This document shows, piece by piece, positions 4,555 through 22,524 of a stretch of DNA of 39,861 nt. Each line of letters opens with the position of its first letter. Position 1 is the first letter of the stretch. The DNA is from Candidatus Pacearchaeota archaeon (GTDB taxonomy: Archaea; Nanobdellota; Nanobdellia; Pacearchaeales; GW2011-AR1): assembly GCA_046705565.1 (NCBI GenBank), contig JBJKQI010000010.1:1-39861 (forward strand), written 5' to 3'. The notes below the pieces were generated by a model, which searched no databases, was not told the origin of the DNA, and worked only from the letters and a program-made list of their open reading frames with translations. Made by a program: the position numbers and the translations under genes.

Positions 4555-6498
4555 TTACTTTTCAATTCTTTTTTGCAATTCAGCAATTCTGTTTTTTAAC
4601 CTAATTGCGGTTTCAAAATCAAGTTTGTCGGCTGCTTCTTTCATGTCTTCCTGTAAGTTTATAATTAAATTTGGAATTTCTTTTTTAGGTATGTGCTTTG
4701 TGTCTGTTACTTCAACCTGCTTTTCTCTTATTGGTTTTATGATTGTCTTTGGGATTATATTGTGTTCTCCGTTATATTTCATTTGAATTTCACGACGACG
4801 CTTGGTTTCACTTATTGCGGTTTCTATTGATTCGGTCATAACGTCTGCGTAAAGGATAACTTTAGACTCTGAATTTCTTGCGGCTCTTCCGATAGTTTGG
4901 ATTAATGATTTGTCATTTCTTAAAAATCCCTCTTTATCTGCATCAAGAATTCCAACAAATCCTACTTCTGGAATGTCAAGACCTTCTCTTAAAAGATTTA
5001 TTCCGACTAAAACATCAAAATCTCCGAGGCGTAGCTCTCTAATTATTTCGGTTCTCTCTAAGGTGTCAATTTCTGAATGAAGGTATCTGGCTTTAACTCC
5101 ATTTTCAGCTAAATAATCTGTTAATTCTTCTGCTAATTTTTTAGTTAAGGTCGTGACTAGAACTCTGTTGCCTTTTTCAATTGTTTTTCTTATTTCATTT
5201 GTTACATCAATTACCTGTGACTTGGCAGGGCGAACTTCAACCTCTGGATCTAAAAGCCCCGTCGGTCTGATTAATTGCTCAACAACTTTTGAAGAGTGTT
5301 CTGTTTCATAGTAACCGGGAGTTGCCGAAACAAAAATTGTTTTTTCTTTTTTCAAATATTCCTCAAACTCTTCAAATCTTAACGGCCGGTTATCATACGC
5401 GGAAGTTAATCTAAAACCATAATCAATTAAATTTTTCTTTCGGGCTAAATCTCCTTTGTACATTCCATGAAGTTGAGGAATTGTCTGGTGGCTTTCATCA
5501 ATTACAATTAAAAAATTTTCTCTGAAATAATCTAATAAACAGTATGGCTTTTCACCGGGGGCTCTTTTATCAAAATGCCTTGAATAGTTTTCAATTCCCT
5601 TGCAGTAGCCTGTTTCTTTTATCATTTCAAGGTCATACATTGTTCGCTGTTTAAGGCGGTGGGCTTCAAGTTGTCCTAATTTTGGCAAATCCTCTTCTAG
5701 TTGTTTTAAAATTGAAGACTTCACTTCATCAAATTCATCGTCTGAAATTACAAAATGCCTTGCTGGGTAAACCGTGAAATGATCCCACTCTTCGACTTTT
5801 TCTCCTGTGACTTTGTCCAGTTCAACAATTCTAATTATTTTGTCTTTTTCCAATTCAACTCTTATAATGTTCTCAAAGCCTGATGGAATGAAATCAACTG
5901 TGTCTCCCCTAACTCTAAACTTTCCCGCTGAGAGATCCATATCATTTCGTTCGTACTGAGAAGCAATCAATTTATACAAAATTTTTTTCCTTTCGATTTC
6001 TTGTCCCTTTTCAAGAGAGAATCTGAATCCTAGATAGTTTTCGGGATTTCCCAACCCATAAATGCACGAGACTGATGAAACGACAATGGTGTCACTTCGC
6101 GCGAGAATTGAAGAAGTGGCGGCTAAACGCATCTGGTCAAGTCGTGAATTTATTGCGGCGTCTTTTTCTATGTACTGGTCTGTAGTTGGGATGTATGACT
6201 CGGGCTGGTAATAATCATAATAAGAAACGAAGTATTCGACTTTGTTGTCGGGAAAGAGTTCTTTTAATTCTTCATAAAGTTGGGCTGCGAGAGTTTTGTT
6301 GTGTGCTATAACAAGTGTCGGCATCTGAACTTTTTCAACAACGTTTGCGATTGTGAAAGTTTTTCCACTACCTGTTACTCCAAGAAGAGTTTGCATTTTA
6401 GCTCCATGACGAATTCCATTGGCTAATTCTTCAATCGCTTTTGGCTGGTCGCCTGTTGGTTTATTCGGTGAAACTATTTTGAATTTTTTAGATTCCAT
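4555..6498 (-). CDS. uvrB: Excinuclease ABC subunit B (UvrB)
   Basis: 647 aa with Walker A GVTGSGKT, helicase motifs (DESH, VSATP, QTIGRAARN) and a C-terminal UVR motif (DFETAIRLKNRIAELQ). Confidence 0.96.
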   Translation of the reverse strand: MESKKFKIVSPNKPTGDQPKAIEELANGIRHGAKMQTLLGVTGSGKTFTIANVVEKVQMPTLVIAHNKTLAAQLYEELKELFPDNKVEYFVSYYDYYQPESYIPTTDQYIEKDAAINSRLDQMRLAATSSILARSDTIVVSSVSCIYGLGNPENYLGFRFSLEKGQEIERKKILYKLIASQYERNDMDLSAGKFRVRGDTVDFIPSGFENIIRVELEKDKIIRIVELDKVTGEKVEEWDHFTVYPARHFVISDDEFDEVKSSILKQLEEDLPKLGQLEAHRLKQRTMYDLEMIKETGYCKGIENYSRHFDKRAPGEKPYCLLDYFRENFLIVIDESHQTIPQLHGMYKGDLARKKNLIDYGFRLTSAYDNRPLRFEEFEEYLKKEKTIFVSATPGYYETEHSSKVVEQLIRPTGLLDPEVEVRPAKSQVIDVTNEIRKTIEKGNRVLVTTLTKKLAEELTDYLAENGVKARYLHSEIDTLERTEIIRELRLGDFDVLVGINLLREGLDIPEVGFVGILDADKEGFLRNDKSLIQTIGRAARNSESKVILYADVMTESIETAISETKRRREIQMKYNGEHNIIPKTIIKPIREKQVEVTDTKHIPKKEIPNLIINLQEDMKEAADKLDFETAIRLKNRIAELQKRIEK

Positions 6499-10951: not shown

Positions 10952-11237
10952 CGAGTAAAATAAAAGAAAAATTGCTTTTAAGGTTTTGTGGAACTAGTGA
11001 GAATTAAATATTTTCTTATTCAAAAAGTTATTCGGTGAGCAACTTTTCTTTTTATGTCCTTGGTCGACTTTGTTCACTTAGGTTCCTTTTGGCAAATTGA
11101 AATTCACATTCCTAACTCTCACTTTTACTTTTTTAATAGGTAAATTTTTTTGAATTTGGATTCGGACAATAATGTTTATTTGTTTTTCTTTGATTTTTTA
11201 GGGCATACAAAGTATGGCAAAAAGGCTAATTTTACCT

Positions 11238-11444: not shown

Positions 11445-11950
11445 TTTTGATTATGCGAATTATTTCAGTGGTTTAAATTGATTTTTTGCTAGGGGCGTTG
11501 GAAAGAAAAGTATGCACTTATTTTTTCTTAGATTATCCGAATTATTTTAAGGGGTTTGCTTAAAATTTGTTAATTTCTTCAGTAATATCTCATTTTCTAG
11601 AAAATTTTGGTCTATTAGGGGTTATATTTAGCCCCTTTCTATTTGGGTGAAACTTTTACCTTGCTTTTTTGAAATTTATTTTATCTAAAAAAAGACTAAA
11701 AATTGCCTACAAAAGACCCCAAAATTTTTAGAAAACTTTCATTAACTTAGGATACCTTTGTTTAAAAAGGCGAAATTTTAGGTTGTTTAAGTTAATTTTT
11801 ATTAGATTTCACCTTTTATTTTCAAAGCTAAACGGCTGTCCAAACAATACAAACACCCTTTTACCGAATATAATGCTGGCAAATGACACCATTGTTTTAC
11901 GCTTAATTCTTTGGGTGTTGGACGGTGTTTATGATTGTTTAAGCCCGTCC

Positions 11951-11997
11951 AAACAGCTGTTTTTAGTCCATTTTTTATTCCTATGCTGTTTAAACAG
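11951..11997. promoter_or_regulatory. Two perfect 12-bp palindromes upstream of the 12121 gene (candidate operators)
   Basis: AAACAGCTGTTT (11951-11962) and CTGTTTAAACAG (11986-11997). Each is followed by GTCCATTTTT(T)ATT (11966-11979 and 12007-12019). Confidence 0.45.
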
Positions 11998-12120
11998 TTA
12001 TTTTTGGTCCATTTTTATTATTAAAATTGGTCTTGAAGAACCCCTTGAAAAAAGGCAAAAATTACCTTTTTCTCGTCAATAAAAGAAAAAGTTTTTAAAG
12101 CAAACATACCTAAAAATAAT

Positions 12121-12759
12121 ATGTTTGGATTTTTCAAGTCAAAAAACAAAATTGAAGAGGTGCAAAAAGAGACCAAATTTGGTTTTGAGGCAGTTAAAAA
12201 GGATATTTTATCTGTTGGTGAGTGGATTAAACACCTTGATTCTGAAAAAAAAGTTCACAGAAATGAGATAAATGAGATAAAAGAGGATTTATCGTCGCTA
12301 AAAGAAGACTTTGAAGAATTAAAAAATATGGTTTCTGTGGTTGTTGATTTAAACACAAACAGCCGTTTAAACAAGCCGTTTAAAACAGATAAGTGGCTGT
12401 TGAATAAACAAACGCCTGTTTATGATGTTCAAACAGATGTTCAAACAGATGTTCAAACACCAAATTTAAGCAGTTTTTCAGTTACCGAAAGAGCAATTCT
12501 TTTAGTACTCTTAAATACTGACATGAAATTGAGCTATGAGGATCTTGCTGCAATGCTAAATAAAGAAAAATCTACAATAAGGGGTCAAATAAACTCCATA
12601 AAATCGAAAAGTGAGAGCTTAATAGAGGAAATAATAGAGAAAAATGGTAAAAAAAGGATATATGTACCTGAAAAAATGAAAGAAAAGATACTCAAAAAGC
12701 AAAAAGTGAGAGTAAAAGAGTCAAAAAAAGACAATAAAAAGAAGAAAAATGAGAGTTAA
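12121..12759 (+). CDS. Coiled-coil protein with a VQTD repeat and a C-terminal winged-helix-like domain (paralog A)
   Basis: 212 aa with heptad-rich N-terminal half (EINEIKEDLSSLKEDFEELKNMV), VQTDVQTDVQT, then ERAILLVLLNTDMKLSYEDLAAMLNKEKSTIRGQINSIKSK, which looks like a helix-turn-helix, and a lysine-rich tail. Confidence 0.7.
   Translation: MFGFFKSKNKIEEVQKETKFGFEAVKKDILSVGEWIKHLDSEKKVHRNEINEIKEDLSSLKEDFEELKNMVSVVVDLNTNSRLNKPFKTDKWLLNKQTPVYDVQTDVQTDVQTPNLSSFSVTERAILLVLLNTDMKLSYEDLAAMLNKEKSTIRGQINSIKSKSESLIEEIIEKNGKKRIYVPEKMKEKILKKQKVRVKESKKDNKKKKNES
12424..12459 (+). repeat. Perfect tandem repeat (GATGTTCAAACA) x3, in frame
   Basis: Read directly: three identical 12-nt units encoding D-V-Q-T x3 within paralog A. 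Confidence 0.95.
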
Positions 12760-12984
12760 AGACAAAAAAATTAAAAAAAGTCCAAAAGTGAGGCTTCTAT
12801 GCAAGGCATAGGATTCAAAACAGAAGGATTTTTATAAAAAAGTGAGGGATTTTAAGGATTTCCCAAGCTAAAAAAGAAAAAGAGGTAAAAACAAAAGATA
12901 AGTAAAAGCATGCTTTGTCGTCGGGAAAGGAAGGGTTGTGTTAGCTGAAGAAAGAAAGTTATTCGTTGTACAGAATTTCTCTCC

Positions 12985-13016
12985 TTTTTGTTTATTTTGG
13001 AGAAAATAAACAAAAA
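12985..13016 (-). terminator. Perfect 14-bp inverted repeat with a 4-nt loop just downstream of the stop at 13018
   Basis: TTTTTGTTTATTTT (12985-12998), GGAG loop, AAAATAAACAAAAA (13003-13016). The stem is all A/T apart from one G:C pair, with T-runs. It sits in the convergent intergenic region. Confidence 0.4.
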
Positions 13017-13017
13017 T

Positions 13018-13710
13018 CTAGAGACTTACTAGTGTTAAGATCGTATTAAGGGATGCAACCTTTTTAAGAGAAGAAGAAATATTTAACTGAATTTCTTTGT
13101 TGTTTATTTTGTTTTTCTCGACGGGAATTCCTTTAATTATGAGCCTTCTAACATAATCACGAAGGGAGCTTTCAGATAATCCGAGAAGGCCTGAGAGGGT
13201 TTTATAATCCGAATGACCTCTCTCTTCATCGAGCTGATAAATTGCACTGAAAACAGTTATTTCTTGCTTAGTTAACCTTTTGAATTTTAATCTTATCTCT
13301 TTTTTTAACGAATCAAGAGAATCTAAGGTATTTATTGCATCCTGAAAAAGGGTTTCTGGGAGATTCTTGGGGCTTTCTCTATATGAAAAACCCCCTTTTT
13401 GGCTTAAAATGTCTGTTTGTCTGTTTGTCTGTTTGTCTGTCTGAACCCCTTCATTTCCATTGGAAATACCCTCTTTTTGGTCATTTAAAGGCTTAAAAAT
13501 GTGTCTATTTGTCTGAATATTGGGCTCCTGCGTCTGAAAAGATTCCCTTTGTGTGGGGATTTCTTTTTCCTCTATAATTCTCATTCTTTTGTCTAAATTA
13601 TAAAAGGCGTTTCCCATTTCTACAATTAGTTCGTCAAACCTTGAGAGCTCCTCCCTTAATTCATTTATTTCTTCTTTTACCTTCAAGAAAGCTCCTTTTA
13701 TATTATCCAT
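13018..13710 (-). CDS. Coiled-coil protein with a QTD/QTN repeat and a C-terminal winged-helix-like domain (paralog B)
   Basis: Same architecture as 12121..12759: VKEEINELREELSRFDELIVEM, GVQTDKQTNRQTD, then LTKQEITVFSAIYQLDEERGHSDYKTLSGLLGLSESSLRDYVRRLIIKG. I prefer the ATG at 13710 (MDNIKGAF...); the track extends to a GTG at 13761. Confidence 0.7.
   Translation of the reverse strand: MDNIKGAFLKVKEEINELREELSRFDELIVEMGNAFYNLDKRMRIIEEKEIPTQRESFQTQEPNIQTNRHIFKPLNDQKEGISNGNEGVQTDKQTNRQTDILSQKGGFSYRESPKNLPETLFQDAINTLDSLDSLKKEIRLKFKRLTKQEITVFSAIYQLDEERGHSDYKTLSGLLGLSESSLRDYVRRLIIKGIPVEKNKINNKEIQLNISSSLKKVASLNTILTLVSL
13411..13442 (-). repeat. 8-nt tandem repeat (GTCTGTTT) x3 plus one imperfect unit, inside the coding sequence
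   Basis: Read directly: GTCTGTTT GTCTGTTT GTCTGTTT GTCTGTCT. The sense strand reads ...ACAAACAG... The unit length is not a multiple of 3. Confidence 0.95.
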
Positions 13711-13763
13711 AAAAAAAGTAAGTTTATTCACTTTAAAAAAATTAAGATAATTAAAAACCACAA

Positions 13764-14030
13764 TTATTGATATTTTCTGTAAGCTTCATAAGCAGAGGAG
13801 GAAAGAATCCATCGGGACCTTTTTAAGTATTGAATACCCTCTTTATTTTTTTTCACCTCGGAAACTAATCCTTTTTTTAATAGCTCCTTTAGAATGTTTT
13901 TTGTAAATTCTTCATCTCTTGCAATCTCTCTTGAAATGTGTGCCGTAAAAAGGGGTTTTGGGCTAGATTGAAAAAGGAGTGTCAGGATTTGCTCTGAAAT
14001 TTTTTCCCTCTTTTGCTTTGAAATTTTCAT
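13764..14030 (-). CDS. small winged-helix DNA-binding protein
   Basis: 88 aa. ISEQILTLLFQSSPKPLFTAHISREIARDEEFTKNILKELLKKGLV...G...Y has the spacing of a helix-turn-helix plus wing. Directly upstream of paralog B on the same strand. Confidence 0.6.
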   Translation of the reverse strand: MKISKQKREKISEQILTLLFQSSPKPLFTAHISREIARDEEFTKNILKELLKKGLVSEVKKNKEGIQYLKRSRWILSSSAYEAYRKYQ

Positions 14031-14089
14031 TTTAACAAAATAAAAAAGTCATAAAGAATTTAATAAGATTTCTAAACAAGAACAAAGGA

Positions 14090-14503
14090 TTATTCTTTAT
14101 TTGAAGTTAAAGAAGGCATTCTAAAATGAGCTGGCAAACCAAGCTCATCCTCTAGCTGAATTGCCTTTATGTTACATTTTATAAGAATCATATTAAATAT
14201 TTCAACTTTAACGTCTTCGTCAAGCTCTTTTTTCTTCCAATTTTTTATAATTTCTTTTGCTTTTCCTGAATCAACGCCAACAATTAATTTACCCTCAAGA
14301 TCAATCTTTGCAATTTTATCTGAGTAATCAAGGGAATATCCAAAAGAAATAGTTAATGCCTTTTGATTGTCTTCTCCTAGCTTGGCCAAATTTTCTTCAA
14401 TAGATTTTACATTCATAGAAGAATCTATTTTTAATTCAGTAAACTCAGAAACAAACCGCTCTGCACTTATTTTTGTTAATCCAAAACCCAAAAATTTAAT
14501 CAT
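14090..14503 (-). CDS. hypothetical protein with a weak SecB-like sequence pattern
   Basis: 137-aa ORF. The alternating beta-like N-terminal half and the ...IFNMILIKCNIKAIQLEDELGLPAHFRMPSL end loosely recall the SecB chaperone layout. This is by-eye similarity only. Confidence 0.45.
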   Translation of the reverse strand: MIKFLGFGLTKISAERFVSEFTELKIDSSMNVKSIEENLAKLGEDNQKALTISFGYSLDYSDKIAKIDLEGKLIVGVDSGKAKEIIKNWKKKELDEDVKVEIFNMILIKCNIKAIQLEDELGLPAHFRMPSLTSNKE

Positions 14504-14555
14504 GATGTTACCAAAAAAACCTTCTTTTTAAAGATTTGTATAAAATTTAAAAAAA

Positions 14556-14816
14556 TTAGATTAAATCCTCTTCGGAAACAACAACAAAATCCCCAATAGC
14601 GATAATTGCTGAATAGGGAATAAGCAATTCATTTGCACTTGATTTTTCGAGGTTCAAATTTTTTGTATAGATTGTAGAGTCTTTCACAACTAAATTTATT
14701 AGCTCTCCAGATTTCGTTTCAAAAGTAACATCTTTTACAAACCCTAGCCTCTTACCCTCTTTAGTAACAATCATTTTACCCAAAATTACATTAAAAGGTA
14801 TTTTTTCTGTTTGCAT
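14556..14816 (-). CDS. PRC-barrel domain protein
   Basis: 86 aa. ILGKMIVTKEGKRLGFVKDVTFETKSGELINLVV...LIPYSAIIAIGDFVVV fits the PRC-barrel pattern (G..V....G..lG.V.Dv......g.i..l.v....iP...v..ig.d.v.v). Confidence 0.75.
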   Translation of the reverse strand: MQTEKIPFNVILGKMIVTKEGKRLGFVKDVTFETKSGELINLVVKDSTIYTKNLNLEKSSANELLIPYSAIIAIGDFVVVSEEDLI

Positions 14817-15018: not shown

Positions 15019-15049
15019 GGGGTGTGTCACACCTTTATTTCTTTTGGAA
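15019..15049 (-). repeat. ORB-like element 1 (inverted orientation)
   Basis: The reverse complement reads TTCCAAAAGAAATAAAGGTGTGACACACCCC. Its first 21 nt differ from ORB-2 at one position, and it ends in a C-run (a G-string on the other strand). Confidence 0.7.
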
Positions 15050-15214
15050 AATAAAAATTTACTGATTTTTGTTTTTTTGTATTTTTATTTTATTTAAAAA
15101 AATTTATATTATATATTATATATTTATATAATCTTTTTATAATATAATAATAAATTAATAACCTATTTAGAAAGATAAATTTATAGTTTTATATAAACTT
15201 GAACTTATACGTCT
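15050..15214. other. AT-rich candidate duplex-unwinding element
   Basis: I counted 9 G/C in the 120 nt at 15061-15180. It contains TA-rich runs such as ATATTATATATTATATATTTATATAAT. Confidence 0.6.
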
Positions 15215-15240
15215 TTCCATAAGAAATAAAGGTGTATTTC
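15215..15240 (+). repeat. ORB-like element 2
   Basis: TTCCATAAGAAATAAAGGTGTATTTC. Confidence 0.65.
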
Positions 15241-15312
15241 TTTTTTAGTAGTCATAATCTTTTATATACACTTTTCATTTTTTTCCGTTGAGGGTTTCGG
15301 GGACTTCATTTT

Positions 15313-15340
15313 TTCCATAAGAAATAGACGTCTCACCCCC
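15313..15340 (+). repeat. ORB-like element 3
   Basis: TTCCATAAGAAATAGACGTCTCACCCCC. Its first 14 nt are identical to ORB-2, and its C-run resembles that of ORB-1. It ends 22 nt upstream of the orc1 ATG. Confidence 0.7.
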
Positions 15341-15362: not shown

Positions 15363-16580
15363 ATGGAAAGCGAACTAGACAAAATTTTTGATTCGTTTGA
15401 TAAGAATAATATCTTCAAAGATAAATCTCTTTTACAATCAAACTATAAACCAGAAAATATTCCCCACAGAGATCATGAGATAAAACAAATTGCTTCTATT
15501 CTTGCGCCGGTCTTAAGGGGTGAAAAGACCAGTAATCTCTTTTTGTACGGAAATACAGGCACGGGCAAAACTCTTTCTATCTTAAAGGTACAAGAAGCTT
15601 TAGAGAAAAGAATGCAGAAAAATGAAAATATTGATTTTGAACTTAGGATTCAATACCTCAATTGTAAATTAAAGCAAGTTGCAGATACTGAATATAGAAT
15701 TCTTGCGGAGATTATACGGCAATTGGGCGGAGAAGTTCCTGCAACGGGGTTACCCACCCAGGCAGTTTATAGTAAGTTTATTGAAATTGTTGAAGAAAAG
15801 AAGCAGCTGGTTGTTCTAATTCTTGATGAAGTAGACCAACTTGTGAATAAAATTTCAAATAATTTTTTATATAATCTTACCAGATTAAACTTCGAATTAT
15901 CCAAGTCACAGATTTCTCTTGTAGGAATTTCAAATGATTTGACTTTTTTAGATAATGTTGATCCACGTGTGAAAAGTTCCCTTTCTGAGGAAGAGATTGT
16001 TTTCTCACCATATAATGCTTTACAAATTCAAGATATTCTCCTTAAGAGGATTGGAGGGGCTTTCAAAGAAGGAGTCTTAGAAGAAGGGGTCGTTTCAAAG
16101 TGTGCGGCTTATGCAGCGAGGGAATCTGGGGACGCGAGACGTGCATTGGATTTATTAAGAGTTGCCGCAGAATTAGCTGAGAGAGAAGGAGCAAAGAAAG
16201 TTAAAGTTGAGCATATAGATAAGGCAAAACAGAAAATCGAGAAAGATAAAATTATAGATGTGATTAGTAATCATCCAAAACAGTTTCAGATGGTCCTTAA
16301 TTCAATTATTTCACTTTATGAAGAGAAAAGAGGGAGCCCTTTTTTTACCGGGGAAGTTTACTTGAATTACCAAAAGGCATGTAATCTTTACAAAGTCGAA
16401 CCTCTTACCCAACGTAGAGTAGGAGACATTATTCAGGAGTTTGATATGCTTGGGATAATAAATGTTCGTGTTATTTCTAAGGGAAGGGGGGGAAGAATGA
16501 GGGAAATACGACTCATACTTCCAGAAGCGGTAATGGAAAAATCTAAAGAAATTTTAACCTCTACATTAAATTATGCTTAA
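15363..16580 (+). CDS. orc1: Orc1/Cdc6 replication initiator
   Basis: 405 aa with AAA+ Walker A (YGNTGTGKT), Walker B (ILDEVD), sensor region (GDARRALDLLRVAAE) and a C-terminal winged helix (TQRRVGDIIQEFDMLGII). Confidence 0.95.
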   Translation: MESELDKIFDSFDKNNIFKDKSLLQSNYKPENIPHRDHEIKQIASILAPVLRGEKTSNLFLYGNTGTGKTLSILKVQEALEKRMQKNENIDFELRIQYLNCKLKQVADTEYRILAEIIRQLGGEVPATGLPTQAVYSKFIEIVEEKKQLVVLILDEVDQLVNKISNNFLYNLTRLNFELSKSQISLVGISNDLTFLDNVDPRVKSSLSEEEIVFSPYNALQIQDILLKRIGGAFKEGVLEEGVVSKCAAYAARESGDARRALDLLRVAAELAEREGAKKVKVEHIDKAKQKIEKDKIIDVISNHPKQFQMVLNSIISLYEEKRGSPFFTGEVYLNYQKACNLYKVEPLTQRRVGDIIQEFDMLGIINVRVISKGRGGRMREIRLILPEAVMEKSKEILTSTLNYA

Positions 16581-16591
16581 TTTATTTCAAG

Positions 16592-18187
16592 ATGACACAA
16601 GAAGAACTGCAAAATCTCTGTTTGAAGAAAGATCTCCTGTTAGATGGAACTCTACTTGAACTTTTTTCGTCCTTTGACAACCCCAACCTTGCTGCACTAC
16701 TTCTCGAGAGAATAAAATTTTTTCTTGGGAAAAATTTTCTAACACTTTCTTTACTGAGAAACAATGAAAAGCGGGTTAAAGAAATAATTGATGAGGTTTC
16801 TATTGCTCAAAATTTTAACAAAGAAGAAATAAACAAAAAACTTAATCTTTTTGGGGGGAAAACTAATTCTTTTAGGTTGGAGAGGGAAAATCCAAGGCCA
16901 ATTGAGAGGGGGCCCAAGGTAAAAGTTGTCTCTTCTCCCCAGACTCCCTCAAAAAAATTGGAAGTTAAGGACTTTGTTATTCATTTTAGAAAAAGATATG
17001 AATTCTACAAGGGAGTTCTTGAAGGAAGTTCTTTACTTGAAAACCTCGTCTCTATTAATAAAATTTCTAATGATAAACAAAAGTTTTCTGTAATTGGAAT
17101 TGTAACTGAAAAAAGAGTGACTAAGAATAAAAATATAATCTTGGATATTGAGGATCTTACAGGCAAGATGAAAGTATTAATCAGTGCTTCGAAAGAAAAC
17201 CTTGTAGAAGAAGCGGATGATATTGTCTTAGACTCTGTAATTGGATTTAAAGGGATGGGAAATAATGAGATTCTCTTCGTAAATGAATTAGTTTTTCCCG
17301 AGGCAAATTTGCCCGAGAGAAAAAAATCAGATGTTGAAGAGTACGCACTTTTTATTGGGGATATGCATTATGGGAGTAAACGGTTCTTGAAAAAGGACTT
17401 CTCCAGATTTATTGATTACCTGAATGGAAAAGTTCCTGGGACCCCGGAAGTTAAGAAAATAAAATATCTTTTCATTGTGGGGGACATGGTGACCGGCATT
17501 GGAAATTACCCCAACCAGGAGCCTGATTTAATGACTGTTAATTTAGAGGAACAATTTAGTGAGATCGCCCAAATTCTTGGAACAATAAGAAAGGATATTC
17601 AAATAATAATTTCTCCTGGGAATCACGATTGTGTTCGGTTGATGGAACCTCAACCTCTCCTTGATGAAAAATATGCTTGGCCTCTTTATGAGTTAGAAAA
17701 TGTTACAATAACTGGCAACCCGGCGATGATAAAAATAGGAGAGTCGAAAACATTCGATGGGTTCAATATTCTAACTTATCATGGTTTTTCTTTTCCATAT
17801 TATGCTAACGCCGTTCCAAAATTAATTGCGGATAAGGCAATGAATCAACCGGAGAAGATTATGAAATTTTTGCTTAAACACCGGCATTTGGCTCCCACAC
17901 ACACCTCAACTCAATATTTTCCTCTTGAAAAAGATGGACTCTTAATCAGGGAAATTCCAGATATTTTTGTTTCCGGGCATACTCACAAAAGTGGGCTCGC
18001 ATATTTTAATAATATTCTTGTTATTTCTGTCTCGAGTTGGGAAGGGTTTAGCTCTTATCAGGAGAAATTTGGTAACAAGCCGGATCATTGCAAAGTGCCA
18101 ATGTTGAATTTGAAAACAAGACAAGTTAAAATCCTTGATTTTGAAACGGGTGAAGATGGTGTACGGCTTTATAGGGAGGATGAATAA
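16592..18187 (+). CDS. polB: DNA polymerase II (PolD) small subunit DP1
   Basis: 531 aa with an OB-fold region followed by calcineurin-like phosphoesterase motifs (GDMHYGS, GDMV, GNHD, GHTH). Stop and next start overlap as TAATG. Confidence 0.93.
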   Translation: MTQEELQNLCLKKDLLLDGTLLELFSSFDNPNLAALLLERIKFFLGKNFLTLSLLRNNEKRVKEIIDEVSIAQNFNKEEINKKLNLFGGKTNSFRLERENPRPIERGPKVKVVSSPQTPSKKLEVKDFVIHFRKRYEFYKGVLEGSSLLENLVSINKISNDKQKFSVIGIVTEKRVTKNKNIILDIEDLTGKMKVLISASKENLVEEADDIVLDSVIGFKGMGNNEILFVNELVFPEANLPERKKSDVEEYALFIGDMHYGSKRFLKKDFSRFIDYLNGKVPGTPEVKKIKYLFIVGDMVTGIGNYPNQEPDLMTVNLEEQFSEIAQILGTIRKDIQIIISPGNHDCVRLMEPQPLLDEKYAWPLYELENVTITGNPAMIKIGESKTFDGFNILTYHGFSFPYYANAVPKLIADKAMNQPEKIMKFLLKHRHLAPTHTSTQYFPLEKDGLLIREIPDIFVSGHTHKSGLAYFNNILVISVSSWEGFSSYQEKFGNKPDHCKVPMLNLKTRQVKILDFETGEDGVRLYREDE

Positions 18188-21100
18188 TGGAGACTCAGGA
18201 ATATTTTAAAAATTTTAAGTCCGAAGTTGATAAAATTTATGCAGTTGCAAATGAGGCAAGAAAAAAAGGGTTTGATCCTGTTAGAGAAGTTGAAATTCCC
18301 CTTGCCCTTAGTATGGCTGAAAAAGTTGTTGGTTTAATTTCTACAGTTTACCCTCAGATGATGAATTCTGGGATTTCTGAGAGAATAACAGAATTAGAAA
18401 AAGAATATGGGAAGCTTGACCCAACGGTAGTTTTTAAGATTGCAGATGAAATTTCTAACCAAAAGTTTTGTCAATTCAAGGATGTTTTGGAGGCAATGGA
18501 TGCAGGAATTCGAGTGGGAATAGCATATTTAACTTTGGGGGTTGTTTCCAGCCCGATTGAAGGATATACAGGAATTGAAGTCGGAAAAACAAGGGATAAA
18601 AAAGAGTATATTATTGCAAACTTTTCAGGACCAATTCGTTCAGCAGGAACTACTGCTTCATGTATGGCTTTAGTTTTAATTGATTTTATGAGAGAAAAAT
18701 TTGGTTATGCAAGGTATGACCCGACGGAAAAAGAGATAAGAAGAGTTTTTTCGGAACTCTCCGACTTTCATGATAGAATTGCAAATTTGCAGTATATGCC
18801 AACTGAAGAGGAAGCTGTCTTTCTTGCAAAAAATTTGCCTATTCAGGTTGCAGGAGATCCGTCGGAGAAAATGGAAGTTTCAAATTATAAAAATCTTGAG
18901 AGGGTTAATACAAACAATCTTCGAAGTGGAGTTTGCCTTGTTCTTGGAGAGGGCCTTGCACAGAAGGCGGCAAAAGGGTTTAGGCTCCTTAATCAGGCGA
19001 AGAAAAATGGTATAAAATCTACAGGTTTTGACTGGCTTAAAGAGTATATAGAACTTCATGAAAAAAGAACTCTCGGAAAAGACAAAAAAAGTGGACCTGC
19101 TACATACATAAAAGATTTGGTTGCAGGTCGTCCTGTTTATGGGCATCCGGCCCGTTCGGGGGGTTTTAGATTTAGGTATGGTCGTGGAAGATCTTCAGGT
19201 TTCAGTGCAGTTTCAGTCCACCCCGCAACGATGGGGATAACAGACGATTTTCTTGCGATGGGAACTCAACTCAAAATCGAAAAGCCAACAAAAGGGTGCA
19301 CGGTCACAACTTGTGACGAAGTCGACGGTCCAATCGTCAAATTAAAAAATGGGAGTGTTGTTAAACCAGATTCTTTAAAGAAAGCAAGGGATATCTACAA
19401 AGATATTGAAGAAATAATCTATCTAGGAGACATGCTTTTTCCATTTTCTGATGTCTTAAATAGAAATTCTCAATTAATTAAACCGGGTTATGTAGAGGAA
19501 TGGTGGAATCTTGATTTGAAAGAGAAGGGATTCAACGGAAAAATGAATTATTATGGTGTGCCTTTTGAAGAAGCCGTTAAAATAAGTCAGCAATATAAAG
19601 TTCCTCTTCATCCTCAATACATCTTTTATTGGACACAAATTTCAAGAGGAGAATTTTTTGGATTTATTAATTGGATTAGACATGCAAATGTTGATGGCGA
19701 AATAACTTTGCCTTGGACAAAAAAAGATAGGGAAGTTTTTTCTATTGGGAAGCGTGCTCTTGAACTTTTGGGGGTGGTTCATTTGGTTTCAATTGAAAGT
19801 GTTGTGATTGACAAAAAGACGAGTGAAGCTCTTTTGTTTAATTTAGGACTCAATGTTAATAATTTTCCAAAAGATAAAATTAAATTGAATGGCCTGGAAA
19901 TAAAATATCCAAAAGAATCTCCTTTAGAAATTGTGAATCTTTTGTCTTCAGTTATTATTAAAGACAAGGCCGGTGAATTTATTGGAACAAGGATGGGCAG
20001 ACCTGAAAAGGCTAAAGTTAGAAAACTAACCGGCAGCCCAAATGTTTTGTTTCCCGTCGGTGAAGAGGGGGGAAGACTTAGAAGTGTAGGTGCTGCGTGC
20101 GAGGCGGGTTTTGTTAAGAGCAGCTTTCCAATGTATTTTTGTGAAAATTGTGATAGGGAAACAATTTATAGAACCTGTGAAGTTTGTTTAAATAAAACAA
20201 AAAAGAGATATTATTTCACAGATATAAAAGAAAAAGCTTATGAGAAAAAAATAGAATATTCTTCGCGTGAAGGAATTTCTTATTGTACCCAAAAACTTGA
20301 TGTGAATCATTATTTTAATATTGAAAAAGAGAGGTTAGGTATGATTAAAGATGAGATGCCCCCCTTAATAAAAGGTATTAGAGGGATGAGCTCCGAAGAA
20401 AAAACCCCCGAACTTTTATCAAAAGGTATCTTAAGGGCAAAATACGGATTACAGGTAAATAAGGACGGAACTATAAGAATGGATGGAACTGAGTTGCCGT
20501 TAGTTTCATTTAAACCAAAAGAAATTGAAGTTAGTGTTAAAAAATTAAAAGAGCTCGGTTATGATAAGGATGTTTATGGAAAAGAACTTGAGAGAGATGA
20601 TCAAATATTGGAGCTTATGCCCCACGATGTTTTAATTCCCAGCTCTCCCGAAACCCCTGACGAAGATGGGGCTGACGTTTTTATAAAGATATGTAATTTT
20701 GTTGATGATGAGCTTACAAAAATTTATGGATTAAATTCTTATTATAATGTAAAAACAAAGGAGGACCTTGTGGGAACTTTAGGGGTTTGTATGGCCCCCC
20801 ACAATTGTGCCGGTGTCGCATGTAGATTTATCGGTTTTTCAAAAGCTCTGGGAATTGTTGCAAGTCCTTATATGCATGCAGCAATTAGACGTGATTGTGA
20901 TGGGGATGAAGCTGCAATAATGCTTTTGGGGGATGTATTAATTAATTTTTCAAGAAAGTTTTTGCCAAGTCATAGGGGAGGAAATCAGGATGCCCCCTTA
21001 GTTTTAAATTCCAAAATAGATGCAGGAGAGGTTGATGACCAGATCCTGGACTTTGAGGCAGTTTGGGAGTATCCTCATGAACTTTATAAATTGGCTGAGG

Positions 21101-21645
21101 AAGGAGTTCACTCTTCAAAAGTTGTTTTACCGACGGTAAGAAGTCTACTAAAAGAGGGAAAAGACCCTTTCAGAGATTTAGGGTTTACGCATGACACTAA
21201 AGACATAAATGAAGGAGTTCTTTGTTCTTCGTATAAGCTTCTTGAAAATATGGTTGAAAAAGTCGGTCATCAAATGAAACTTGCTGAAAAATTGAGAGCT
21301 GTTGACACTTCTGACACAGCCCGTCTTGTGATTGACAGACATTTCATAAGAGATTTAAGAGGTAACCTAAGGAAATTTTCGCAACAGGAATTTCGGTGTG
21401 TCAAATGCAATGAGATTCTTCGTCGGGTGCCTCTCTCTGGGAAGTGTCCGGTTTGCGGCGGGAAATTAATTTTTACAATTAATGAAGGCGGAATAAAAAA
21501 ATATCTTGAGCCTGCACTTAATCTTGCAAAACAGTATAATTTGAGCATGTATATGCAACAAAATCTTGCTCTAATTAAAGGATATATTGACAGCATCTTT
21601 GGACGTGAACTTGAAAAGCAAGAAAAATTGGGACAATGGTTTTAG
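18187..21645 (+). CDS. polC: DNA polymerase II (PolD) large subunit DP2
   Basis: 1152 aa with conserved DP2 blocks (GRPEKA, RRDCDGDE) and Cys clusters (CENCDRE...CEVC and CVKCNE...CPVCGG). The length fits an intein-free DP2. Confidence 0.95.
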   Translation: METQEYFKNFKSEVDKIYAVANEARKKGFDPVREVEIPLALSMAEKVVGLISTVYPQMMNSGISERITELEKEYGKLDPTVVFKIADEISNQKFCQFKDVLEAMDAGIRVGIAYLTLGVVSSPIEGYTGIEVGKTRDKKEYIIANFSGPIRSAGTTASCMALVLIDFMREKFGYARYDPTEKEIRRVFSELSDFHDRIANLQYMPTEEEAVFLAKNLPIQVAGDPSEKMEVSNYKNLERVNTNNLRSGVCLVLGEGLAQKAAKGFRLLNQAKKNGIKSTGFDWLKEYIELHEKRTLGKDKKSGPATYIKDLVAGRPVYGHPARSGGFRFRYGRGRSSGFSAVSVHPATMGITDDFLAMGTQLKIEKPTKGCTVTTCDEVDGPIVKLKNGSVVKPDSLKKARDIYKDIEEIIYLGDMLFPFSDVLNRNSQLIKPGYVEEWWNLDLKEKGFNGKMNYYGVPFEEAVKISQQYKVPLHPQYIFYWTQISRGEFFGFINWIRHANVDGEITLPWTKKDREVFSIGKRALELLGVVHLVSIESVVIDKKTSEALLFNLGLNVNNFPKDKIKLNGLEIKYPKESPLEIVNLLSSVIIKDKAGEFIGTRMGRPEKAKVRKLTGSPNVLFPVGEEGGRLRSVGAACEAGFVKSSFPMYFCENCDRETIYRTCEVCLNKTKKRYYFTDIKEKAYEKKIEYSSREGISYCTQKLDVNHYFNIEKERLGMIKDEMPPLIKGIRGMSSEEKTPELLSKGILRAKYGLQVNKDGTIRMDGTELPLVSFKPKEIEVSVKKLKELGYDKDVYGKELERDDQILELMPHDVLIPSSPETPDEDGADVFIKICNFVDDELTKIYGLNSYYNVKTKEDLVGTLGVCMAPHNCAGVACRFIGFSKALGIVASPYMHAAIRRDCDGDEAAIMLLGDVLINFSRKFLPSHRGGNQDAPLVLNSKIDAGEVDDQILDFEAVWEYPHELYKLAEEGVHSSKVVLPTVRSLLKEGKDPFRDLGFTHDTKDINEGVLCSSYKLLENMVEKVGHQMKLAEKLRAVDTSDTARLVIDRHFIRDLRGNLRKFSQQEFRCVKCNEILRRVPLSGKCPVCGGKLIFTINEGGIKKYLEPALNLAKQYNLSMYMQQNLALIKGYIDSIFGRELEKQEKLGQWF

Positions 21646-21648
21646 AAA

Positions 21649-22524
21649 ATGAAATGTGCGGATCTTCATTGTCACAGTTATTATTCCGACGGCGTTTTAT
21701 CCCCTACAGAAGTTGTAAGGAGGGCTAAGAATAATGGGGTAAAAATGTTGGCTTTGACAGATCATAATTCCGTTTCCGGTGTTAAGGAAGCTATTGAAGT
21801 CGGGAAAATAGAGGGGGTAAAAATTATCCCTGCAATAGAAATCAAGTTTGGGGGAGGAGAAGTTCTGGGATATTTTGTTAATATTGAAGATTCAAAATTT
21901 TTAGATTCTTTAGAAAAAATAAAAAAACCATATCTTGAACGCATGAAAAAAATTTGTATTCAGTTAAGTCTGGAAAGAATTCAAATTTCCTTTGAAGATT
22001 TGAAAAAAGCTTTTCCCCTGGCAAACAATAATTTCACATGGACGCACATACTTTATTATTTATATAATAAAAACCTTAGAAATTCTTTGTCTGAAATAAG
22101 TTCGCTTATTTTTGGTAAGATTAGATGGAATAAAATAAAAGAAATTTCCGCTGAAGAAGCAATTGAAATTGTTGTCGGTGCGGGAGGAATCCCTATCTTG
22201 GCTCATCCCTGGATAACTAAAAAGTCAAAAGCCCTTTTAGAAGAACCCAAAATAAGCCAACTTGTTAGAAGAGGTTTAAGAGGGCTTGAATTTGACCAAG
22301 GGGACAGGAATGAAAAAAGAAGTGAAGAATTTATTAAAAAAATAAAATCTATTGCAAAAATACATAACTTAATTCTAACCTCTGGTAGTGACTTTCATGG
22401 GGATTTTTTAATAGATTCTCATGAAGATAAATTTCATCATGAACTTGGTGCTCATAATTGCGAAGAGAATGTTTTTGATAACTTGTCGAAATTAAAAATA
22501 GAATCCCAAAAGACTTTATTTTAA
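21649..22524 (+). CDS. PHP-domain metal-dependent phosphoesterase (TrpH/YciV-like)
   Basis: 291 aa with the ordered motifs DLHCHSYYSDG, LTDHN, EI, AHP, GLE, GSDFHG typical of PHP-family esterases. It starts 4 nt after the DP2 stop. Confidence 0.8.
   Translation: MKCADLHCHSYYSDGVLSPTEVVRRAKNNGVKMLALTDHNSVSGVKEAIEVGKIEGVKIIPAIEIKFGGGEVLGYFVNIEDSKFLDSLEKIKKPYLERMKKICIQLSLERIQISFEDLKKAFPLANNNFTWTHILYYLYNKNLRNSLSEISSLIFGKIRWNKIKEISAEEAIEIVVGAGGIPILAHPWITKKSKALLEEPKISQLVRRGLRGLEFDQGDRNEKRSEEFIKKIKSIAKIHNLILTSGSDFHGDFLIDSHEDKFHHELGAHNCEENVFDNLSKLKIESQKTLF

Follow-up and report, generated by a model that had tools for sequence, protein, structure and literature searches.

Two convergent genes of a Pacearchaeota genome carry perfect short tandem repeats in the parts that code for their linkers, which raises the question whether selection acts there on the peptides or on the nucleotides. 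The genes, here called A and B, are located on contig JBJKQI010000010.1 of Candidatus Pacearchaeota archaeon (GenBank assembly GCA_046705565.1; 682 kb, 34% G+C, DPANN), and the stretch of this contig that was analysed, 39,861 nucleotides (nt) in length, is referred to as the window. A sequence-only reading of the locus had described both open reading frames (ORFs) and a repeat of Q-T-D/N type in each, and had suggested a slippage-prone tract or a signal at the DNA or RNA level rather than simple conservation of the peptide. ORFs and repeats were found as described (Table 1), and we consider it probable that the Q-T-x repeats are by-products, i.e., the in-frame translation of cis-acting DNA repeats in disordered linkers of two origin-proximal winged-helix genes.

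In gene B, which starts with MDNIKG at 13710 and stops at 13018 on the minus strand, the 8-nt unit reads TGTCTGTT on the plus strand and ACAGACAA on the sense strand, and the tract is alternatively scored by Tandem Repeats Finder with a period of 4 and 8.5 copies at 80%. The linker of protein B contains ...GVQTDKQTNRQTD... (longer form ...GISNGNEGVQTDKQTNRQTD...), that of protein A ...YDVQTDVQTDVQTPNL..., and CAAACAG occurs ten times in the window, eight times within 11950-14813. Homologs of gene A (>2300, all unnamed) and of gene B (>870, present in 185 of 301 sampled genomes of the phylum) come from metagenome-assembled genomes named Pacearchaeota, Nanoarchaeota or Woesearchaeota. Each peptide motif has a fixed position in more than 100 homologs per family, and the recurrence of these tracts at corresponding positions, observed for about 100 orthologs, is beyond chance. 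The repeats are retained in homologs, with three units in 106 of 120 A proteins (88%) and three or four in 110 of 120 B proteins, where counts range from one to four and change by whole four-residue units. The nucleotide core CAAACAGA, described in the sequence-only reading as shared by the two genes, was rejected as a core common to both families, as it is not general and most B orthologs have CAGACAGA.

Codon choice within the repeat regions

Codon alignments of 81 orthologs per family were used to compare synonymous variation inside and outside the motifs. The probability of finding the same codon, given a conserved residue, was 0.95 inside and 0.50 outside the motif in B (Mann-Whitney p = 6e-8) and 0.88 versus 0.64 in A (p = 6e-6); codon usage alone predicts 0.44-0.47 in B and 0.47-0.51 in A. 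In each gene the motif windows rank first or second of all sliding windows, and the invariant residues of the winged helices vary synonymously about as family codon usage predicts. A control in the same loci, the invariant SPGNHD motif of DP1, presented ordinary synonymous scatter. Within the A units Gln is encoded by CAA in 234/234 codons against a background of 72%, and Thr by ACA in 219 and ACG in 15 of 234, ACT and ACC (39% of the background) being absent. In B, where the frozen block on the sense strand reads TATTTCCAnnGGAAATnAAGGGGTTCcaACAGACAGA..., Ser83 is TCC in 72/73 sequences (background 11%), Gly88 is GGG in 72/73 (background 23%) and Asp92 is GAC in 65/65 Asp codons (background 24%). 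The A unit, GTnCAAACAGnT, has two variable positions only, the third base of the Val codon and the second base of GnT (G, A or D), and the third base of GnT is T in 96-99%. Since this nonsynonymous base varies and the adjacent synonymous positions are fixed, which is the opposite of what selection on the protein would give, the constraint lies at the nucleotide level.

Ordinary peptide conservation would require xQTx to be a short linear motif or structural element, its codons being identical through an A+T-biased preference. The fixed position and near-fixed copy number in both families fit such a motif, and CAA and ACA are preferred codons, but preference accounts neither for the invariant CAA and the missing ACT/ACC nor for the fixed rare codons TCC, GGG and GAC in B, and a nonsynonymous position that varies beside synonymous ones that do not runs counter to it. 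Furthermore, behind an origin recognition box (ORB) in B, described below, the peptide changes wholly between lineages (QTDR, QTNK, NQSI, HSFI, HMQT), yet the 4-nt periodicity of the DNA persists; the repeat regions are predicted to be disordered (AlphaFold2); and the hexamer of the A unit, AAACAG, is repeated in non-coding arrays upstream of A. This explanation is already disfavoured and in our estimation highly improbable. The DNA-level signal proposed from the sequence was corroborated by the nearly frozen synonymous sites next to a varying nonsynonymous base, by the arrays of the same hexamer in non-coding DNA upstream of A, and by the layout of the DNA, which persists in B between deep lineages where unit and peptide change.

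Synonymous constraint is equally expected of a signal in RNA. The frozen nucleotides might form a structure of the mRNA or a site (e.g., GUUCAAACAG) for an RNA-binding regulator or small RNA, and ATTTCC-N3-GGAAAT can indeed form a hairpin of 6-7 bp. However, folding predictions gave no unusual stability (z = -1.67 for A, +1.06 for B), a scan of 10-16 kb against Rfam at E <= 1 gave just two chance matches, which lie in the A-B spacer, and the conservation consists of invariance only, without covariation. In addition, the motifs are present in both orientations in the DNA upstream of a promoter-like box of A and recur in the untranscribed origin upstream of orc1. Because folding is unremarkable, Rfam matches are missing and both orientations are used in non-coding DNA, a signal in the DNA is preferred to one in the RNA, which we regard as highly unlikely.

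The site within gene B and the replication origin

A 19-nt pattern, TTTCCANNNGAAATNNANG, has only four zero-mismatch matches in the window and likewise in the whole assembly, three of them in the spacer upstream of orc1 (the ORB-like sites of Table 1) and one, at 13448-13466 on the minus strand, in B, so that the B site belongs to the repeat set of the origin. Its core, TTTCCAATGGAAAT (13453-13466, minus strand), is a dyad with TTCC and GAA, the perfectly conserved core motifs of ORBs in Pyrococcus (PMC1904270), and 3' of it follows the G-rich string GAAGGGGTT. The core form TTCCAnnGGAAA was found in 75/81 B orthologs, and the core together with GG[GT]G in 77/81. The full ORB lies on the sense strand of 77/81 orthologs, 75 of which have it in one reading frame; it is also retained in distant B homologs that belong to other families of the class and are only 25-35% identical. 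A site of the consensus type TTTCCAnnGGAAATnAAGGGGT underlies the peptide 'GISxGNxGV'. Its pattern identity with the origin sites and a TTCC/GAA core as in Pyrococcus (PMC1904270) lead us to read this peptide as the translation of a fourth ORB. That the B tract adjoins an ORB in the coding sequence had escaped the sequence-only reading. For annotation this is a reason for caution, as GISxGNxGV and the QTD/VQT 'peptide motifs' are best explained as translated DNA signals, and dual coding can mislead.

For the four classes of sites the consensus is TTTCCAcaGGAAATgAaGGGGTTC for B, TTTCCAtaaGAAATa.AGGtGT for right-1, TTTCCAtagGAAATaaAcGTGT for right-2 and TTCCA.aaGAAAtcAagGgG for left, with TTTCCA-N3-GAAAT-N2-A-N-G-N-G common to all (30-49 loci each). 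As in the canonical ORBs of Sulfolobus oriC1, Pyrococcus and Aeropyrum (PMC1904270; PMC4010727), the same TTCC...GAA dyad core is combined with a G-rich string, and inverted copies surround an AT-rich core beside orc1. In contrast to these, the B copy is intragenic and about 1.6 kb away from the core, and the conserved 3' extensions differ among the four sites.

Eighty loci were fetched via family A, all from relatives within Nanoarchaeia/Pacearchaeota. B is convergent to A in 80/80 of these, and in 80/80 the two genes lie beside the origin, as the sequence-only reading had proposed to check. Where the contig permits, the gene order is A, followed in the opposite direction by B, genes for an 88-amino-acid winged helix-turn-helix protein and a 137-amino-acid protein and a PRC-barrel gene, then the intergenic oriC, and beyond it, in the direction of A, orc1/cdc6 and dp1. 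The oriC layout, with ORB-like sites inverted about the core, is repeated in about 50 loci, and the GC skew changes sign around 10-15 kb. The genes dp1 and dp2, for the small and large subunits of PolD, were also matched by NCBIfam models. In the literature searched, no description of replication origins of DPANN/Nanoarchaeia was found; the locus offers a clear and testable model of a DPANN origin, with three intergenic ORBs and one intragenic, kept across many families.

Table 1. Position of repeats, sites and genes in the window.
Feature	Position	Strand	Description	Basis
Gene A	12121-12759	+	212 amino acids; coiled coil, disordered linker, MarR-like winged helix, basic tail	ORF list, AlphaFold2, Foldseek
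A repeat	12424-12459	+	GATGTTCAAACA; period 12, 3.0 copies, 100% matches; encodes (D)VQT x3	Tandem Repeats Finder
Nucleotide-frozen block, A linker codons F87-L116	12379-12468	+	TTTAAAACA ... AAACAAACg ... (GTnCAAACAGnT)x3 ... CCAAATTTA	Codon alignment, 81 orthologs
Non-coding AAACAG/CTGTTT sites upstream of A	11836-12000	.	Include palindromes AAACAGCTGTTT (11951-11962) and CTGTTTAAACAG (11986-11997)	
Gene B	13018-13710	-	230 amino acids; coiled coil, long disordered linker, helical region and winged helix	ORF list, AlphaFold2, Foldseek
B repeat	13410-13440	-	Period 8, 3.9 copies, 100% matches	Tandem Repeats Finder
Tetranucleotide-type tract directly 3' of the ORB G-string	13410-13443	-	(CAGA/CAAA)n; encodes QTDKQTNRQTD	Tandem Repeats Finder
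ORB-like site in B coding sequence	13444-13466	-	TTTCCAATGGAAATGAAGGGGTT, translated (I)SNGNEGV	Pattern match, orthologs
oriC ORB-like site, left of AT-rich core	15032-15050	-		Pattern match
AT-rich core, putative DNA-unwinding element	15051-15213	.	163 nt, 10% G+C, between inverted ORB-like sites	
oriC ORB-like site, right proximal	15214-15232	+		Pattern match
oriC ORB-like site, right distal	15312-15330	+	98 nt past right proximal site	Pattern match
orc1/cdc6 initiator gene, then PolD dp1 and dp2	15363-16580	+		TIGR02928, 412 bits (cutoff 181)

The closest precedent comes from Thermococcales, which have an ORB cluster inside dp1; in Pyrococcus, Cdc6 binds it both in vivo and in vitro (Matsunaga et al. 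2007, PMC1904270). New here is a probable origin-associated ORB within a coiled-coil/winged-helix gene. Both systems place an ORB inside a coding gene a kilobase or two from oriC, are conserved across an order-level group and flank the orc1 gene region. They differ in the host gene, which here is of the coiled-coil/winged-helix type and lies across oriC from dp1, and in that B has a single full ORB rather than a cluster, in a disordered linker and with a conserved tetranucleotide array after it; Cdc6 was found bound there, whereas the B site is predicted from its sequence. By analogy with dp1, Orc1/Cdc6 may bind the intragenic ORB of B. The site could then serve the origin as an auxiliary or a negative element, as in a model for Haloarcula hispanica, in which, according to the summary in a review, a downstream ORB cluster negatively regulates oriC2 (Wu et al. 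2014, reviewed in PMC4010727). That cluster likewise consists of extra ORBs outside the core origin, proposed to modulate initiation, but it belongs to another phylum and is not described in that summary as embedded in a coding region, and for the B site a regulatory role is a hypothesis. Alternatively, the B site might couple the expression of A and B to occupancy by the initiator.

Two further candidates were dropped. An apparent ORB in dp1, TTTCCAGGAGAAAT, present in several loci, is the antisense of the SPGNHD phosphoesterase motif; with its ordinary codon scatter it became the negative control mentioned above. A second, inverted ORB past the B tract is confined to L016 and L022 and not general; in these two loci (at 6032 and 6001, respectively) it brackets the tetranucleotide tract, giving an ORB-tract-ORB mini-palindrome within the gene. 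On the far side of the origin (15363-22524), a PHP-family phosphoesterase gene follows orc1-dp1-dp2, an arrangement which resembles oriC-cdc6-dp1-dp2 of Thermococcales.

Tandem arrays, hexamer sites and the encoded proteins

The 8-nt period of the B tract in the window is an alternation of CAGA and CAAA, and in five further genomes (L022, L026, L035, L043, L051) this 8-nt variant is likewise the best period. B orthologs have (CAGA)n of 7.5-13 units, often perfect (Tandem Repeats Finder), and, as CAG-ACA-GAC-AGA is read in frame as Q-T-D-R, the peptide has a period of four residues. Other units stand behind the ORB in distant lineages: (CAAA)n, encoding QTNK, (CAAT)n, encoding NQSI, (CATT)n, encoding HSFI, or the 12-mer CATATGCAGACA, encoding HMQT. 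Because such other units follow the ORB there, the tract is regarded as kept as a DNA feature while unit and peptide turn over, which fits slippage-driven evolution under a frame constraint. Given that the unit differs between lineages, the array directly after the ORB would turn over by slippage on long time scales and be held in frame.

Coding tetranucleotide repeats are known from bacterial contingency loci, such as those responsible for phase variation in Haemophilus and Neisseria. B likewise has a perfect array in its coding region whose unit is not a multiple of three (period 8, 3.9 copies, 100%), and slipped-strand mispairing in it might act as an on/off switch for the winged-helix domain; relatives with as many as 13 units, the turnover of units between lineages and a scaffold that breaks at the tract (L069) agree with this. 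Against a switch, B was in frame in 81/81 close loci and among the matches listed from about 185 genomes, with one TGA in a weak match, so that neither out-of-frame alleles nor frame-shifting length variants were found in these assemblies. Moreover, counts differ by whole four-residue units (mostly 3 or 4), and the ORB beside the tract, to which it is tied, would be superfluous for a simple switch; compared with the bacterial loci, the arrays are short, ORB-linked and archaeal. A contingency locus is considered very unlikely. The slippage suggested by the sequence-only reading is hence partly supported: homogenised units within genomes and perfect arrays of up to 13 units in B speak for it, the stable copy number in A and the lack of a frameshifted allele in about 185 genomes against, and the tracts appear slippage-prone over evolutionary time, not as a switch.

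It might also be assumed that both tracts are neutral microsatellites, drifting in unconstrained linkers and apparently conserved by slippage homogenisation, with only the ORB being functional. The A units are mutually identical in 43/71 orthologs, though the unit differs between genomes, and identity at the variable positions is 0.82 within and 0.41-0.60 between genomes; units are lineage-specific and the linkers disordered. However, a tract directly follows the ORB in essentially every B homolog of several families, the A unit GTYCAAACA does not vary even among proteins of 37-44% identity, and the A copy number is fixed at three in 88% of proteins, unlike neutral behaviour. Neutral drift is therefore judged quite unlikely.

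The array in A, which may alternatively be written (GTTCAAACAGGT)3, shares AAACAG with palindromic arrays upstream of the gene. In 52 full loci the hexamer is concentrated in the A linker and in the 200 nt located 100-300 nt upstream of the A ATG, where both orientations occur, with about 5.7 copies per locus (background about 0.2), forming the palindromes AAACAGCTGTTT and CTGTTTAAACAG (one occurrence each in the 682-kb assembly) as well as CTGTTT/GTGTTT arrays phased at about 10 nt. The AAACAG core of the three coding units GTnCAAACAGnT is the half-site of the upstream palindromes and phased arrays. As judged from sequence and layout, the upstream sites most likely serve as operators for one of the winged-helix proteins of the module, which may be A itself. 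Distant A homologs (37-44% identity) keep GTC-CAA-ACA but have no upstream arrays, for which reason the coding copy seems older than the arrays. The GGTGTT of A was at first a candidate for an ORB G-string and was dropped, since the middle base of GnT is variable.

The proteins themselves were modelled with AlphaFold2 from alignments of 46 and 47 sequences. As anticipated in the sequence-only reading, both have a coiled coil, a repeat region and a winged helix, and the order of domains is identical: A comprises a helix (4-80), a disordered region (79-110) and a winged helix (116-191), B a helix (2-48), a disordered region (52-117) and helices with a winged helix (119-229). The linkers that carry both motif regions have a predicted local distance difference test score (pLDDT) below 50, the C-terminal domains one of about 90. 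In Foldseek the latter resemble winged helices of the MarR/Lrs14 type (E about 1e-3, root-mean-square deviation about 2 A), with MepR, MarR, AbfR2 and ST1889 as top matches, and superpose on MepR (3eco), AbfR2 (6cmv) and ST1889 (2d1h) at about 2 A over about 75 residues. The palindromic half-sites upstream of A's own gene also fit the autoregulatory layout of such regulators, but where MarR proteins have their dimerisation helices, A and B possess a coiled coil at the N-terminus and a long disordered linker. Scans with Pfam and NCBIfam gave no family for A, B, the 88- or the 137-amino-acid protein, and A and B stay below every cutoff, with sub-cutoff helix-turn-helix (HTH) matches only (HTH_11, 16 bits, cutoff 25; HTH_36, 18, cutoff 25; Sta1, 19, cutoff 80); a sequence search of the PDB gave just weak HTH and coiled-coil matches. 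Of the paralogy claimed earlier for A and B, the shared architecture and the similarity of the winged helices stand, but support is remote: BLASTP gave E = 0.008, the hhalign match (95% probability, E = 2e-8) is confined to 52 winged-helix columns, and a genome search with A or B recovers the query alone, neither retrieving the other.

Several points weigh against reading the repeats as translated DNA signals. Slippage homogenisation, as seen in A, may fix codons in perfect repeats without selection on a binding site, and for the relatedness of the orthologs the other columns of the same genes control just partly. The distant A homologs retain the coding GTCCAAACA in spite of lacking upstream arrays, so the operator reading is not simply general. 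A short linear peptide motif in the disordered linker could coexist with the DNA signal. Finally, Orc1 at the B site and any binder of AAACAG are proposed from sequence.

An extension of the preferred reading, which we consider unlikely, is that each protein recognises the DNA repeat in its own linker-coding region, the two forming self-referential gene/operator pairs beside the origin. In A the recognition helix KSTIRGQI is invariant across lineages, as is the unit GTYCAAACA. In B, SSIRDY is found with (CAGA)n, GCIRTY with (CATT)n, HCIRSH or xCxR[GA]Y with (CAAT)n and SGVRHY with (CAAA)n, an association confounded by phylogeny. If self-recognition were true, the intragenic ORB would have B docked next to Orc1, and tract and reading head would co-evolve as a lineage-specific accessory control of the origin. 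More generally, an array is always attached to the intragenic ORB and its unit tracks the recognition helix, which raises the possibility of a co-evolving accessory origin-binding factor.

Minor elements around gene A and in the spacers

A small patch of synonymous constraint lies in the coiled-coil region of A, where the codons of Leu57-Ser58-Ser59 are TTA-TCG-TCG in about 90% of orthologs (TCG background 14%; window 12361-12368, 12289-12297). About 30 nt upstream of the A ATG, nearly all loci have the promoter-like box (t)cgacgaaaaacaaaa(c/g)atttttaaa (window 12090-12120), the position of which suggests a short-leader or leaderless transcript. CGACG-containing boxes are repeated in the spacer, and many loci have a conserved element, GTTGTGCACTAAGGTTAnCTTAGTT, with a short hairpin (ACTAAG/CTTAGT) 150-400 nt upstream of A, a degenerate copy of which, tttgttcacttaggttcc, is located at 11058-11090 in the large upstream spacer of the window. 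An extra ORB-like sequence, GTTTTTCCATAGGAAAT..GGTTCTTCGACAC, located about 100-140 nt upstream of A, directly follows the AAACAG array in six loci (L016, L021, L058, L062, L070, L081); in the window just GTCCATTTTT(T)ATT is present, twice, at 11967-11981 and 12007-12020, possibly decayed ORB-like copies.

At the end of A and in the spacer between the convergent genes, a third conserved motif, AAAAGTGAG(A/G), occurs about three times per locus and on the plus strand only (loci L003-L082, around 5400-5800). Window copies are found at about 12704, 12786 and 12840 (within 12700-12860). One of the copies overlaps the final codons of A (KKQKVRVK), among them that of Val220, which is GTG in all orthologs (100%; background 21%), and the A-B spacer contains the others. 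Just past the B stop, several relatives (loci around 5700-5800) share the palindrome GTTATTCGGTATACCGAATAAC, degenerate in the window at 12960-12985 (gttattcgttgtacagaat), which looks like a hairpin terminator shared by the convergent genes A and B.

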